Below are positions 30,471 through 34,942 of a stretch of DNA of 64,000 nucleotides, one piece after another. Position numbers and translations under genes: made by a program. This DNA is from Candidatus Spongiisociaceae bacterium (GTDB lineage Bacteria > Actinomycetota > Acidimicrobiia > Spongiisociales > Spongiisociaceae). A model generated the notes under the pieces. It was not told the origin of the DNA, made no database searches, and saw nothing but the letters and a program-made list of their open reading frames with translations. Every line of letters starts with the position of its first letter. Within the stretch, counting starts at the first letter, position 1. The stretch spans positions 2,703,371 through 2,767,370 of the forward strand of contig OZ251535.1 in the NCBI GenBank assembly GCA_965243165.1, in the 5' to 3' direction.

Positions 30471-32072
30471 TTCGATTTCATGGCCGACCGAGCCCCCGAC
30501 GAGGACTTCACCGTCGAGGCCGACCCCGCTCTCGAGGCGGACCCCGCCTTGGCGGCGGACGCCCCTGCCCTCGAGGCGGGCGAAGCGGAGGGCGGGGAAC
30601 GCCCGGCGTGGCTCCAAGCCCACATGAGCGAATACCAGAAACAACGCCAAGACGTATACGACCGCACCCTGCGTCTCCTGGCCCGGGGAAACCCCTTCAC
30701 CCGAAGCTTCGACGACCACCGCGAGAAAGAAACCGCCAAAGCCGAAGCCGGTCTCGTCCGGGCCCAAGCCGGTATCAGCCGCGCCCGGGGCGACCAGCTC
30801 TACTGGCTGCAGGGCTTGTTCCTCTTCGACGGCGCCCGCCGGGCCGGGTACGCCAGCCGGGTGGATCTGGCGGCGGCGATGATGGACGTCCACCGCAACA
30901 CGGCCAAGAACCTGGTCTACCTGGCGGACCGCATAGACGAGGGCACGGTCAACGCTATCCGCAAGGGCCGGCTGTCGTATGTGCGGGTGCTGGAAGAGAC
31001 CCGCCTCCGCGAAGCCGGCGCTGCCCCGGAGCAGGTCGAAGCAACCCGCCGCCTCGACCTGGGGCGGGTGAAGCGCTTCCTGGCGAAACTCCGGAAGATG
31101 ACCCGCATCGACGAGAAGCGCATCTTCGACGGCCAATACATTGTCTTTCAGCCGTCTCTGGACGAAAGCCACTACCGCGTAGCAGGACAACTCGGCGGCT
31201 ACGAAGGCGAAATCTGCCGTCAAGCCCTCCAACAACGCGCCGAGCGGATCACACCCCCCGCCAACAACAACGAAGACGATCAGGTACGGCCGGACGCCGG
31301 GCTGCGGCGGGCGCTGGCCCTGACTTCGATGTGCCAAGACGAACTCGACCAAACCACCGACCACCCCCACCCCGGCGGGCAGGCGGGCACAGCCGAGGAC
31401 TTGGCCGCGCGGGTGGAAGACCTGGCCGCCTGGGAACAACACCGGGCCGACCACACCGCCCACGACGAAGAGGCCGAACAGCCCGAAGGCGGGGCCGACC
31501 ACGCCGACGAGACCGACCGCACCATCCGCCGAGAACACATCGACGACATCCTCCACACCGCCCGCCGAGCCGCCGGCCGCAACCGCCGCCAACCCCTGCT
31601 CATGATCGTCGCCGACCAACAGCTGGCAGAACAATCAGGCTGCGAACAAGGCGTCAACATCCTGGGAGGACCCAGAGTCGGACCCGACACCATCGACCTC
31701 ATCCACTGCACCGGCAAAACCGAACACCACACCATCACCGAAGGCGGCATCACCAGCCGAGGAACCAAACAACAGATCCGACCCAGTCTGCGAAGAGCTG
31801 TCCTCGCCCGGGACGACGGATGCGTCATCGACGGATGCACCAACACCCACCGCCTCGAAGTCCACCACGTCGTCCCCCTGTCTCAGGGCGGAACCCATCG
31901 GGCGGACAACCTGGCAACGCTCTGTTGGTACCACCATCACGTCGCTGTCCACCGACATGGGCTCCAACTCGATCCCCGTTCACCCCCACACCGGCGAAGA
32001 CTCATCCGGCCCCGGCCCTCCCGCCGGAAACACCCCCCTCCCCAGTTGCGCGCCCTTCTCGCAACCGGATGA
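30468..32072 (+). CDS. DUF222 (13E12-repeat-like) protein with a C-terminal HNH endonuclease
   Basis: RRAVLARDDGCVIDGC...EVHHVVPLSQGG..ADNLATLCWYHH HNH motif. The N-terminal region resembles DUF222. Confidence 0.85.
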   Translation: MFDFMADRAPDEDFTVEADPALEADPALAADAPALEAGEAEGGERPAWLQAHMSEYQKQRQDVYDRTLRLLARGNPFTRSFDDHREKETAKAEAGLVRAQAGISRARGDQLYWLQGLFLFDGARRAGYASRVDLAAAMMDVHRNTAKNLVYLADRIDEGTVNAIRKGRLSYVRVLEETRLREAGAAPEQVEATRRLDLGRVKRFLAKLRKMTRIDEKRIFDGQYIVFQPSLDESHYRVAGQLGGYEGEICRQALQQRAERITPPANNNEDDQVRPDAGLRRALALTSMCQDELDQTTDHPHPGGQAGTAEDLAARVEDLAAWEQHRADHTAHDEEAEQPEGGADHADETDRTIRREHIDDILHTARRAAGRNRRQPLLMIVADQQLAEQSGCEQGVNILGGPRVGPDTIDLIHCTGKTEHHTITEGGITSRGTKQQIRPSLRRAVLARDDGCVIDGCTNTHRLEVHHVVPLSQGGTHRADNLATLCWYHHHVAVHRHGLQLDPRSPPHRRRLIRPRPSRRKHPPPQLRALLATG

Positions 32073-32214
32073 CCCAGGCCGGGCCCGGCTCGGCCTTACC
32101 GGCCCGGACGCACTCGCCTTCCCCGCACTCCCCCTGAAGTCCAAAGAGCCGTTCACCAAGCTCGACGAAAGGAACCCCCGGGGGCATAACCGCCCGCCCG
32201 CCGGCGCCGACAGG

Positions 32215-32243
32215 TTGACAGAACCGGGCAGACGCGCCATACT
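32215..32243 (+). promoter_or_regulatory. Sigma70-type promoter TTGACA-N17-CATACT
   Basis: TTGACA at 32215-32220 and CATACT at 32238-32243, upstream of the cimA leader. Confidence 0.75.
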
Positions 32244-32253
32244 GCCCGAAGAC

Positions 32254-32289
32254 ATGAACATGACAAGCACCGGGATCATTATCGGCTAG
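32254..32289 (+). CDS. Leader peptide MNMTSTGIIIG (three consecutive Ile codons)
   Basis: ATG AAC ATG ACA AGC ACC GGG ATC ATT ATC GGC TAG, lying between the promoter and the terminator. Confidence 0.8.
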   Translation: MNMTSTGIIIG

Positions 32290-32324
32290 GGGCATAGGGA
32301 CCCCGTACAACCCGATGCCCCCTC

Positions 32325-32355
32325 AAGCCCTGCGCTCCGGCGGAGGGCTTTTTTT
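32325..32355 (+). terminator. Intrinsic terminator of the cimA attenuator
   Basis: AAGCCCT-gCGC-tccg-GCGg-AGGGCTT, with a run of 7 T at 32349-32355, 75 nt upstream of cimA. Confidence 0.85.
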
Positions 32356-32429
32356 GTTGCCTCCCGACCCGGCCCGAAGAGACCGGGCGGCGGCGGGAGG
32401 GCGGGGCGGCGGAAGAGAGGCGGCGCACC

Positions 32430-34001
32430 ATGGCGCATCATCCACAGCTCGAGATCTACGACACCACCCTGCGCGACGGCGCCCAGCAGGAAGGCATCTC
32501 GCTGACCGTCTCCGACAAGCTGCGGGTGGCGGGGCTGCTGGACGAGCTGGGCGTGGCCTACATCGAGGGGGGCTGGCCGGGCGCCAACCCCAAGGACAGC
32601 GAGTTCTTCGAGCGGGCGCGCTCCGAGCTGAACCTGCGCACCGCCTCGCTGACCGCCTTCTCCTCCACCCGCCGCCCGGGCGGGCCGGTCGAGGGGGACC
32701 CGCAGATGCGCGGCCTGCTGGCAGCCGGGACCGAGGTGGTGTGCATCGTCGGCAAGGCCTGGGACTACCACGTGACCGAGGCGCTCCGCACCAGCCTCGA
32801 CGAGGGCGCGGCCATGGCGGCCGAATCGGTGGCCTATCTGGTCGGGCGCGGGCGCCGGGTGTTCTTCGACGCCGAGCATTTCTTCGACGGTTACGCCTCC
32901 AACCCCGATTTCGCGATGGCGGTGCTGAGAGCCGCCCACGAGGAAGGGGCCGAGCGGCTGGTGCTGTGCGACACCAACGGAGGAAGGCTCCTGCACGAGA
33001 TAACGGGCGCCCTGGGCCGGGTGCAGGAGGCCCTCCCCGACGCCGAGCTGGGGGTGCATTTCCACAACGACGCCGGGTGCGCGGTGGCCTCCTCCCTGGC
33101 GGCGGTGCGGCTGGGCGTCCGTCAGGTGCAGGGATGCATCAACGGGTACGGGGAACGCACCGGCAACGCCGACCTCTCTACCATCCTTCCCGACCTGGTG
33201 CTCAAGATGGGAGCGCCGGTGCTCGACGAGGAGCGGTTGGCGAACCTGTCCCCCATCTCCCATCACATCGCCGAGATCGTCAACATCAGCCTCGATCCGC
33301 ACCGCCCCTACGTGGGCGCCTCTGCCTTCACCCACAAGGCAGGCCTCCACACCTCCGCCCTCGCCCGCCGCCCCGACGCCTACGAGCACCAGGATCCGGC
33401 GGCGGTGGGCAACCGCACCCGGATGGTGGTCTCCGAGCTGGCCGGCAAGAGCACCATCCGTTCGAAGGCGGCGGAGCTGGGCTTGGAGCTGACCGACCGC
33501 CAGACCGGCGAGGTGCTGGACCAGATCAAACAGATGGAGCACCGGGGCTATCACTTCGAGGCGGCCGACGGTTCCTTCGAGCTGATGCTCCGCCGGGCGG
33601 CGGGCTGGTCGAACGGTTACTTCGAGCTGGAGTCCTACCGGGTGTCCACCGAGCGGCGCGGCGGGGAGGTCATGGCCGAAGCCACGGTCAAGCTGTCGAT
33701 CAGGGGCGAGCGGATCATCGCCACCGGGGAGGGGAACGGCCCGGTCAACGCCCTCGACCACGCCCTGCGGGGCGCCCTCCGCAGCCGCTTTCCCGAGCTG
33801 GACGGCCTGCGGCTGACCAACTACACGGTGAGGGTGCTCGACGCCGCCGAATCAACCGCCGCCTCGGTCCGGGTGTTCATCGAGACCGGCGACGGAACAG
33901 GCGTCTGGGGGTCGATCGGGGTCGACACCGACGTGATCGCCGCCTCCTGGGAGGCCCTGGCGGACGGGATCGTCGTGGGCCTGCTCCGGGCGGGGGCCTG
34001 A
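32430..34001 (+). CDS. cimA: Citramalate synthase (DRE-TIM, LeuA-like family)
   Basis: IYDTTLRDGAQQEG, GKAWDYHV, GYGERTGNA, AFTHKAGLH, C-terminal regulatory domain AEATVK...GNGPVNALD. The Ile leader supports the CimA call. Confidence 0.88.
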   Translation: MAHHPQLEIYDTTLRDGAQQEGISLTVSDKLRVAGLLDELGVAYIEGGWPGANPKDSEFFERARSELNLRTASLTAFSSTRRPGGPVEGDPQMRGLLAAGTEVVCIVGKAWDYHVTEALRTSLDEGAAMAAESVAYLVGRGRRVFFDAEHFFDGYASNPDFAMAVLRAAHEEGAERLVLCDTNGGRLLHEITGALGRVQEALPDAELGVHFHNDAGCAVASSLAAVRLGVRQVQGCINGYGERTGNADLSTILPDLVLKMGAPVLDEERLANLSPISHHIAEIVNISLDPHRPYVGASAFTHKAGLHTSALARRPDAYEHQDPAAVGNRTRMVVSELAGKSTIRSKAAELGLELTDRQTGEVLDQIKQMEHRGYHFEAADGSFELMLRRAAGWSNGYFELESYRVSTERRGGEVMAEATVKLSIRGERIIATGEGNGPVNALDHALRGALRSRFPELDGLRLTNYTVRVLDAAESTAASVRVFIETGDGTGVWGSIGVDTDVIAASWEALADGIVVGLLRAGA

Positions 34002-34096
34002 CCCCGCCGCATCCGCCTCTCCGCTGCGGGCAGTGAACGGCCGAGGTTATCGTGGGGCCGCCCCCGCCGGCCCCCGCCCCGCAGGGGAAGCCGGGC

Positions 34097-34942
34097 ATGA
34101 CCTTCGAGCGACAGGACCGCCCTATGCCTGACGGACCCCGCGCAAAAGCGCCGCCCCCGGCCGCGGCCGAATCGCTGCTGGAGGAAGCCGTCGAGCTGGC
34201 GCAGCGGGCCGGGCGCCTCACCATGAAATGGTTCCGCCCCTCCGTGGAGGTGGACTTCAAGGCCGACGGGAGCCCGGTTACCGAGGCGGACCGGGCGGCG
34301 GAGCAGATGCTGCGGCGGGAGCTGGCCGAGCGCCGGCCGCAGGACGCGGTGGTGGGCGAGGAATACGGAAGCAGCGGGGGCGGAAGCGGACGCACCTGGT
34401 TCATCGACCCCATCGACGGCACCCAGTCGTTCGTGCGGGGGGTGCCCCTGTTCGCCACCCTGCTGGCCGCAGAGGACGGCTGCGGCCCGGCGGCGGGGGT
34501 GATCTACCTGCCGGCCCTCGACCAGACGGTGGCGGCCGGGCGCGGCCTGGGGTGTTACCTGGACGGGCGCCCCGCCGAAGTCAGCGGCCGGTCGGCGTTG
34601 GAGGGCGCCGTGCTGTGCTCCAGCAGCTTCGACCTGATTCCCGAGGAGGCGGCCCGGCGTCTGCATCGCAGCCCCCTCGTCCTCCGGGGCTGGGGCGACG
34701 CCTACGGCTACGCCTTGGTTGCGGCCGGGCGGGTGGAGGCCATGTACGACCCGGTGGTGAACCCCTGGGACACGGCGCCGATGGCGGTGATCATCCCCGA
34801 AGCGGGCGGCGTCTTCACCGACGCCTACGGCCGGCCGGGTTTCCGTTCGGGGACCGCCCTCGCAACCAACGGCCTCCTGCATGAGGAGATCCTCGAAACA
34901 GTGAACGGGCCGGGCGCCCAAGCGGCGGCGGACGGCGGCTGA
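34097..34942 (+). CDS. hisN: Histidinol-phosphatase, inositol-monophosphatase family
   Basis: KADGSPVTEAD, GEEYG, WFIDPIDGTQSF, RGWGDAYGY, PWDTAP. Confidence 0.85.
   Translation: MTFERQDRPMPDGPRAKAPPPAAAESLLEEAVELAQRAGRLTMKWFRPSVEVDFKADGSPVTEADRAAEQMLRRELAERRPQDAVVGEEYGSSGGGSGRTWFIDPIDGTQSFVRGVPLFATLLAAEDGCGPAAGVIYLPALDQTVAAGRGLGCYLDGRPAEVSGRSALEGAVLCSSSFDLIPEEAARRLHRSPLVLRGWGDAYGYALVAAGRVEAMYDPVVNPWDTAPMAVIIPEAGGVFTDAYGRPGFRSGTALATNGLLHEEILETVNGPGAQAAADGG

Follow-up and report, generated by a model that had tools for sequence, protein, structure and literature searches.

What is a short reading frame that ends in three isoleucine codons doing between a promoter and a citramalate synthase gene, and could the ribosome that translates it decide whether RNA polymerase ever reaches that gene? 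The question is raised by a 64,000-nt stretch of DNA from Candidatus Spongiisociaceae bacterium (class Acidimicrobiia; positions 2,703,371 to 2,767,370 of the forward strand of contig OZ251535.1, assembly GCA_965243165.1), hereafter the window, in which the citramalate synthase gene cimA is preceded by a promoter, a tiny open reading frame (ORF) and two consecutive hairpins, the second of them an intrinsic terminator. A first-pass annotation had read this leader as an isoleucine-sensing leader-peptide attenuator, and had sought its antiterminator in a pairing between the two hairpins. The first idea is borne out by the run of isoleucine codons that 62 cimA leaders keep near the stop, and by sister leaders whose codons match their own genes; the second is not. 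We favour, with a probability of roughly 0.55, a ribosome-mediated and isoleucine-specific transcription attenuator of cimA in which the first hairpin, here called hairpin A, would act as a steric antiterminator without overlapping the terminator.

The promoter TTGACA-N17-CATACT, the leader peptide MNMTSTGIIIG and the terminator hairpin with its T run were all found where the first-pass annotation had placed them, and everything described here lies on the forward strand. The -35 hexamer TTGACA (32215-32220) and the -10 hexamer CATACT (32238-32243), 17 nt apart, form the sole sigma-70-like match in 31500-33000, with 10 of 12 hexamer positions matching against 0.0 such sites in shuffles. The -10 hexamer ends 10 nt 5' of the ATG of an 11-codon leader ORF (32254-32289; ATG AAC ATG ACA AGC ACC GGG ATC ATT ATC GGC TAG), which has a second in-frame ATG at 32260, its presumed regulatory isoleucine codons ATC ATT ATC at 32275-32283 and its stop codon TAG at 32287-32289. 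The last base of that stop is also the first base of hairpin A (32289-32321), which in the minimum free energy (MFE) fold consists of an outer stem GGGGCAU/AUGCCCC and an inner stem GGG/CCC, at about -17 to -18 kcal/mol. A spacer of 3 nt, CUC (32322-32324), leads to the intrinsic terminator (32325-32355), with a stem-loop at 32325-32350 (-19.7 kcal/mol) and a U7 tract at 32349-32355; a simple terminator scan missed it, the reason being an internal G/G mismatch. The rest of the 5' untranslated region (UTR) is a G-rich segment of 74 nt (32356-32429) with a Shine-Dalgarno-like AGAGAGG at 32414-32420, and the scan of 31500-33000 found no promoter-like site in it. The MFE of 32250-32360 is -42.8 kcal/mol (z = -2.46 against dinucleotide shuffles), and a search of 31900-32700 against Rfam 15 gave a best match of E = 1.7, with no T-box or riboswitch family. 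Two hallmarks of leader-peptide attenuators in general are thus present, namely a short ORF with a run of end-product codons and an intrinsic terminator between it and the structural gene, translation and termination being predicted here from the sequence.

Is this arrangement more than a local accident? A cimA orthologue occurs in 35 of 41 related genomes, and the leader element stands 5' of all 35: we fetched and read 30 of these loci, and for the other five orthologues covariance-model matches abut the gene. All 30 upstream regions carry the TTGAC promoter motif at the equivalent position (TTGAC or TTGACA), a -10 hexamer, an ORF ending in I-I-I-X-stop, a hairpin flush with the stop and a terminator. 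The ORFs of these relatives are 8-16 codons long, variable in their N-terminal part and constant in their C-terminal isoleucine run. Among 62 distinct Acidimicrobiia leaders of cimA, the sample used for cimA leaders from here on unless another is given, there are 2-5 isoleucine codons followed by 0-2 codons to the stop, and the triplet series ATC-ATT-ATC recurs in 30. The codon ATT accounts for 59 of the 198 isoleucine codons in cimA leaders (30%), as against ~3% in 654 GC3-filtered ORFs of the host genome, an enrichment that might adjust how sensitive the switch is, or stem from some constraint on the RNA itself.

The first-pass annotation, which was right about the lineage, had suggested aligning cimA upstream regions across the Acidimicrobiia, and such an alignment shows both conserved isoleucine-run leaders and covariation in both stems. 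MAFFT with RNAalifold recovered the terminator only, the arms of hairpin A being misaligned, which the covariance-model alignment put right. In that alignment compensatory changes affect 11 of the 19 modelled pairs, six of nine in hairpin A and five of ten in the terminator, where 96.9% of cells are paired. Paired cells come to 90.9%, against 83.4% in shuffles (none of 500 reaches 90.9%) and 36-62% with slid partners. By sequence, hairpin A comes in two or more types, GGGGCAU and GCGCAUAC among them, each with a matching 3' arm. The covariance model, built from 29 sequences, matches only the cimA leader site in the 3.19-Mb host genome, at 86.8 bits. The helix GGGGCAT/ATGCCCC, which the first-pass annotation had noted, does exist, as the outer stem of hairpin A; however, it had been listed as a mere competitor, and it turns out to be the conserved and covarying helix of the leader and more likely the functional antiterminator itself.

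An isoleucine sensor would make most sense upstream of a gene that serves isoleucine synthesis. The 523-aa product of the gene (32430-34001) scores 638 bits against TIGR00977 (cut-off 450) and stays far below the cut-off of every model for LeuA, the isopropylmalate synthase. Its single paralogue in the host genome, at 30% identity, is LeuA, with 623.5 bits against TIGR00973 (cut-off 598.7) and just 201.7 against TIGR00977, and this true leuA lies in an ilvB-ilvC-leuA-leuB operon; the passing of the TIGR00977 equivalog cut-off together with a separate LeuA elsewhere in the genome is the combination expected of a citramalate synthase. The IlvA models find no regulatory-domain threonine dehydratase above cut-off in the host genome, where the best match is a 331-aa protein with the catalytic domain only. 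Because of the TIGR00977 score, the separate LeuA and the lack of an IlvA above cut-off, we take the gene to be cimA rather than leuA by its sequence, in agreement with the first-pass annotation, and the citramalate route would be at least a major route to isoleucine. The leader codons point the same way from the side of regulation, as independent evidence that the citramalate made by this LeuA-like enzyme serves isoleucine synthesis.

The most telling test of what the codons mean comes from other genes. Genomes with two or three matches to the covariance model show the same layout 5' of further genes, and there the codons change with the gene (leader peptides are given up to the stop codon). 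Leaders of ilvB end in Leu, Val and Ile codons (MTTTLVLILT, MTTTSFVLILM, ..LVLILE), and their genes encode the biosynthetic acetolactate synthase (TIGR00118, 754 and 713 bits); leuA leaders in other Acidimicrobiia orders are rich in Leu (..LLLLM or ..LLLIS), and leuB-like leaders in Ile and Val (..VIIIS, ..IVVID, ..VIVIP). The four classes thus read Ile for cimA, Leu/Val/Ile for ilvB, Leu for leuA and Ile/Val for leuB-like genes. The host genome itself has an ilvB leader outside the window (G000:C1 ~1396130-1396260, minus strand), MTNANPVLVLM, with Val and Leu codons and no Ile, a near-leaderless start, a stop-flush hairpin CGCACG...CGTGCG and the terminator ACCCTCCATACGGAGGGTTTTTG, followed by ilvC, leuA and leuB. 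A crude genome-wide scan for a triple-residue run before a terminator gave the cimA leader only, and missed this VLVLM leader, which was recovered by homology; an apparent WW leader from the same scan proved to be the C-terminus of a permease gene. We also note Ile-only leaders at two ilvB-like genes (MTRHTEIIIV at L115 and MNLDLIIIH at L130) and one cimA-like gene with a GLILT leader (L107).

Codons that track the pathway in this way argue for amino-acid-specific, ribosome-mediated attenuation, and such a pattern would hardly be expected of a micropeptide or of an ORF that arose by chance. One could nonetheless suppose that nothing is sensed here at all: the ORF would encode a functional micropeptide or be fortuitous, and the terminator would be constitutive and partial, or mark the end of a small RNA. 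The conservation of a C-terminal (T)G-I-I-I-D motif at the peptide level within the family speaks for such a view. However, the N-terminal part of the peptide is not conserved, codon identity follows the downstream gene over four classes, and for homologous ilvB leaders attenuation has been demonstrated by experiment in Mycobacterium tuberculosis (PMC13236596) and Corynebacterium glutamicum (PMC11857589). Moreover, in many relatives no more than 12-45 nt separate the terminator from the cimA start, too little to house a promoter for cimA alone, so that the gene must there be transcribed through the terminator. We therefore regard the absence of any amino acid sensing as highly improbable. If attenuation holds for both leaders of the host genome, split control would follow within the Acidimicrobiia, with cimA governed by Ile and, in the host genome, ilvBNC-leuAB by Val and Leu.

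How would the ribosome come to be on the leader in time? Across the cimA leaders the -10 hexamer, mostly CATACT or CACACT, lies 7-11 nt 5' of the leader start codon, and neither the window nor any of the 62 leaders has a Shine-Dalgarno sequence for the leader ORF. Because the -10 hexamer of the window is only 10 nt from the ATG and a Shine-Dalgarno sequence is absent, the transcript is putatively leaderless or nearly so, with a 5' UTR of at most 4 nt. The result is a leaderless or near-leaderless upstream ORF with its regulatory codons just 5' of the stop, as is typical of actinobacterial ilvB-type leaders.

The positions of the elements relative to each other are equally constrained. Over 102 leaders from the four gene classes, hairpin A starts at -1 relative to the end of the stop codon in 70, with a range of -3 to +3, and the spacer between hairpin A and the terminator is 0-7 nt; in a cleaner parse of the cimA leaders it is 0-6 nt, with a mode of 2 and at most 4 nt in 57 of 60. 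The first isoleucine codon lies 11-17 nt (mode 14) and the last 5-12 nt (mode 8) 5' of the point where pairing in hairpin A begins. Median stability in the family is -18.7 kcal/mol for hairpin A and -16.7 kcal/mol for the terminator, and both hairpins are present in the MFE of every leader without sharing a single nucleotide, given the spacer of 0-6 nt.

With two hairpins that do not overlap, where is the antiterminator? We name the 5' and 3' arms of hairpin A b and c, and those of the terminator d and e. The first-pass annotation had proposed a b:d helix, GGGCATAGGG (32290-32299) with CCCTGCGCTC (32328-32337), freed when the ribosome stalls on the isoleucine codons. The positions are right and nine of the ten pairs can form; the role of antiterminator does not stand, the pairing being no better than chance. 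In the window it reaches -9.7 kcal/mol, where shuffles average -7.2 (p = 0.13), its counterpart has a mean z of -0.36 over 30 relatives, and in distant cimA leaders it falls to about -2 kcal/mol. Nor would stalling free it: the GGGCATAGGG strand pairs earlier, and more strongly, with ATGCCCC.

The general form of that idea deserves a fair hearing, namely that a stall at the isoleucine codons lets the 5' arm of hairpin A (GGGCAUAGGG) pair with the 5' arm of the terminator (CCCUGCGCUC) and so blocks termination, as in classical alternative pairing. The nine pairs at -9.7 kcal/mol in the window are about as strong as the 2:3 helix of the E. coli trp leader, and one genus has a hairpin A with a 3' arm nearly identical to the 5' arm of the terminator (CCCUGUGCC vs CCCUGCGCC), so that alternative pairings do exist there. 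Yet b:d is no better than in composition-matched shuffles, and no such complementarity was seen in the ilvB- and leuB-type leaders that we read. The 3' arm of hairpin A is also transcribed before the 5' arm of the terminator, and it pairs with b far more strongly (-17.8 kcal/mol). Of the arms, b and e are G-rich and c and d C-rich, so that a helix of the classical 2:3 type (c:d) is not possible and only cross-pairings of the 1:3 or 2:4 kind could form.

Folding with a ribosome in place leads to the same answer. When the 5' end was blocked up to successive ribosome positions, the terminator stayed in the MFE in nearly all sequences. We then folded the transcript without the 3' arm of the terminator and scored a leader wherever at least 4 nt of d were paired upstream: this occurred in none of the 62 leaders with the ribosome at the first isoleucine codon, in eight at the last and in 17 at the stop, where the structures were weak, at about -3 kcal/mol. 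The E. coli trpL leader, our positive control (sequence checked, 100% identity), formed its 2:3 antiterminator (-15.6 kcal/mol) when the ribosome stood on the Trp codons and not otherwise. A stalled ribosome thus offers the cimA leaders no reason to switch, unlike trpL. A classical overlapping antiterminator is absent from the cimA leader family, and we consider a switch by alternative pairing quite improbable.

Several other pairings were considered and set aside. The reciprocal c:e pairing gives no signal against shuffles except in one genus, and its product there is still a terminator-shaped hairpin. Pairing of the isoleucine-codon region with the 3' arm of hairpin A is perfect in L004 (GGGAUCAU:AUGAUCCC), is not conserved, and would be covered by the ribosome anyway. 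Inspection of the window shows that hairpin A could be lengthened at its base by a GGCU:AGCC pairing that reaches into the terminator; this extension is not conserved either, and an Ile-stalled ribosome would cover it. Frameshifting at the hungry codons, carrying the ribosome into the terminator, was rejected by inspection: which alternative frame is open differs between close relatives, CAUAG giving a stop in one frame or the other. Finally, a pseudoknot between the hairpin A loop and the terminator fails in that the loop sequence is not conserved.

What remains is position. A ribosome covers ~12 nt beyond the first base of its A-site codon, as toeprints and footprints indicate. At the first isoleucine codon it would therefore abut an intact hairpin A, at the second it would open ~3 bp, and at the stop it would cover the entire 5' arm. 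Folds of correspondingly truncated transcripts of the window give -18.5 kcal/mol with the first isoleucine codon in the A site and -11.9 with the second, hairpin A being intact in both, as against about -5 at the third and about -1 at the stop. By position, then, a ribosome that has reached the stop codon hides the 5' arm of this hairpin, as in actinobacterial ilvB-type leaders, and with 12 nt past the stop covered the hairpin is fully open.

From this geometry we infer the response to isoleucine, the sign of the switch and a steric step between the hairpins. Transcription would start on the leader AUG itself or only a few bases away, and a ribosome would translate the 11-codon ORF with its end Ile-Ile-Ile-Gly. 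With Ile-tRNA plentiful, the ribosome would run on to the stop codon and unwind the 5' arm of hairpin A, whereupon the terminator would fold and the transcript would end near 32353-32356. With Ile-tRNA scarce, the ribosome would wait at the first or second isoleucine codon, its front edge touching hairpin A at its base or reaching barely into it; the hairpin would then stay folded, and RNA polymerase would read through into cimA. A folded hairpin A would thus stand for starvation and a melted one for sufficiency. Because hairpin A shares no sequence with the terminator, it would have to act by position and not by pairing: perhaps the folded hairpin, backed by a stalled 70S ribosome, sterically suppresses the adjacent terminator in a tug-of-war. 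Tug-of-war has been demonstrated by experiment for riboswitches, in which a longer spacer restores termination and terminators below -16 kcal/mol switch best at short spacers (Bushhouse, Fu and Lucks, bioRxiv 2026). We tentatively propose, at a little less than even odds, that the Acidimicrobiia possess natural, ribosome-gated attenuators of this kind in the cimA leader and in over 100 sister leaders of the ilvB, leuA and leuB types.

Several points weigh against a non-overlapping steric antiterminator. A ribosome with the third isoleucine codon in its A site has already opened most of hairpin A, and stalls there would bring no read-through. Nearest-neighbour folding lets the two hairpins coexist, so that their mutual exclusion has to come from the geometry of RNA polymerase alone. 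In the tug-of-war study, stable terminators were hardly affected, if at all, by a plain hairpin placed upstream, and strong effects were obtained only with tertiary structures or aptamers that had bound their ligand (Bushhouse, Fu and Lucks, bioRxiv 2026); a hairpin A of -17 kcal/mol may thus not suffice against a terminator of -20 kcal/mol, and extra help from the abutting 70S ribosome is an assumption of ours. Lastly, spacer length and terminator strength correlate in the expected direction, weakly (rho 0.24, p 0.06), and across sequences that common descent makes non-independent.

Might hairpin A instead be merely a pause or synchronisation hairpin for RNA polymerase, like the 1:2 hairpin of trp, with read-through achieved by ribosome-polymerase coupling via NusG/NusA or by a trans-acting factor? 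A hairpin placed where the advancing ribosome melts it would also suit pause release, and a pause is plausible in that leaderless translation presumably needs time for 70S loading; the tug-of-war preprint, too, found switching to be host-dependent, with a role for NusG in B. subtilis (Bushhouse, Fu and Lucks, bioRxiv 2026). However, a pause alone explains neither the tight spacer of 0-6 nt nor how termination is avoided, and the conservation of hairpin A in structure and not in sequence speaks against a sequence-specific protein. On balance this explanation seems unlikely, and less far-fetched than control exerted mainly after transcription, to which we give very little credence. In that case termination would not be the regulated step, and a ribosome stalled near the 5' end would stabilise the leaderless transcript, or alter the folding of the UTR and so the translation of cimA. 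Mycobacterial polycysteine leaderless upstream ORFs have indeed been described as working without obvious terminators (cited in PMC13236596; Seliverstov 2005), and the window has a long, G-rich UTR of 74 nt 3' of its terminator; yet a canonical, covarying terminator with a U tract is kept in every leader, and in relatives the UTR beyond it is neither conserved nor long, at 12-45 nt.

The element is largely a property of one class. Model matches occur in 74 of 301 sampled Acidimicrobiia genomes, as against two in ~375 from the rest of the phylum, of which one (..LVLVIH) precedes ilvB and the other (..TLVLIA) a gene of unknown identity. Among the 80 best named cimA loci, 38 carry the element, nearly all of them labelled as Acidimicrobiia metagenome-assembled genomes (MAGs), including Candidatus Spongiisocius. 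At the loci without it (Microthrix- and Iamiaceae-type and other Acidimicrobiales) cimA lies directly 3' of another gene. In a series of these leader-less loci (L066, L069-L070, L074-L103) the gene 5' of cimA ends in ...YKDWLEHV before its stop; we take it to be ilvE-like from this C-terminal motif, no family search having been made, and cimA would then be embedded in an operon there. Five contigs with the same cimA leader (L052, L071, L104, L110 and L112) are labelled as Verrucomicrobiales, Armatimonadetes or Acidobacteriota MAGs, labels that probably reflect mis-binning or mislabelling. One locus, L012 (G016), has an insertion of ~100 nt between terminator and cimA, with inverted ends GGGTACTGAAAA...TTTTCAGCACCC and a resulting UTR of 155 nt, which looks like a miniature mobile element. 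As for the neighbourhood, the genes 5' of the leader vary among relatives; in the window, the ORF just 5' of the cimA promoter (30608-32137, forward strand) has no NCBIfam match, and the gene 3' of cimA (34052-34942, forward strand) is HisN-like, with 237 bits against TIGR02067 (cut-off 275), its product being by sequence an IMPase-family phosphatase of uncertain role.

What would such a leader add to our picture of bacterial regulation? Our literature search found no paper linking citramalate synthase or the Acidimicrobiia to leader-peptide attenuation. Control of cimA by isoleucine is not a new idea in itself, and what is new is this kind of sensor for this gene. Vitreschak et al. reportedly described, in 2008, an Ile-specific T-box 5' of a cimA/leuA paralogue in Geobacter and other Deltaproteobacteria. 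Like the leader described here, it places citramalate synthase under Ile-specific control at the RNA level, and in both cases the specificity of the regulator argues that a LeuA-like gene is CimA; unlike the T-box, which binds uncharged tRNA, the cimA leader is predicted to sense by ribosome stalling on an ORF. The family is large, compact and uncurated, in a poorly studied class of mostly uncultured MAGs; it has no Rfam model, and would be usable for annotation. If the adjacent-hairpin mechanism is true, it would represent a minimal and modular design, in which any codon run could be combined with any hairpin and any terminator, and so be easily re-programmed and a test bed for steric antitermination. 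It would also extend tug-of-war, so far shown just for engineered and ZTP riboswitches, to leader-peptide attenuation. A 2005 survey of actinobacterial attenuators, which includes neither Acidimicrobiia nor cimA, notes that attenuator components are often missing (Seliverstov 2005), and a switch without shared strands could explain why many actinobacterial leaders appear incomplete.

Against the enterobacterial paradigm, the likeness is one of sensor and outcome. As in trpL, hisL, leuL, ilvL and thrL, a short ORF with a run of cognate codons precedes a terminator that stands before the structural gene, and a stalling ribosome would be the sensor. Unlike those leaders, the cimA leader has no 2:3 antiterminator that shares a strand with the terminator, no Shine-Dalgarno sequence, and stall sites that lie 5' of the first hairpin (5-17 nt upstream of it) and not inside segment 1. 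With tug-of-war riboswitches it shares a stable structure 0-4 nt 5' of a non-overlapping terminator, with stabilities within the switching range; it differs in that the structure is a plain hairpin and not an aptamer, and that its folded state would be set by a ribosome and not by a small molecule.

The closest relatives are the actinobacterial ilvB attenuators, and a single covariance model detects both the cimA leader and the identically arranged ilvB leaders of the Acidimicrobiia. In M. tuberculosis ilvB1 the anti-terminator is hidden by a ribosome that has reached the stop, whereas it can fold when the ribosome stalls at LVVI (PMC13236596). The transcription start of C. glutamicum ilvBNC lies 1 nt from the leader start, and its adjacent antiterminator and terminator hairpins share the 3 nt GCC (PMC11857589). 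Like these, the cimA leader has a leaderless or near-leaderless ORF with branched-chain codons just 5' of the stop, a hairpin whose 5' arm a ribosome would occupy on reaching that stop and, directly after the hairpin, an intrinsic terminator; the logic, too, is predicted to be the same, a stalled ribosome letting the upstream hairpin form and RNA polymerase read through. It differs from them in reading Ile only, in regulating cimA and not ilvB, in lacking an anti-antiterminator (H1-like) hairpin, and in having hairpins separated by 0-6 nt, whereas those of C. glutamicum share a 3-nt boundary and those of M. tuberculosis are described as mutually exclusive. The cimA leader thus appears to be a new, Ile-only member of the actinobacterial ilvB-type leaders, within a non-overlapping group that spans the Acidimicrobiia.

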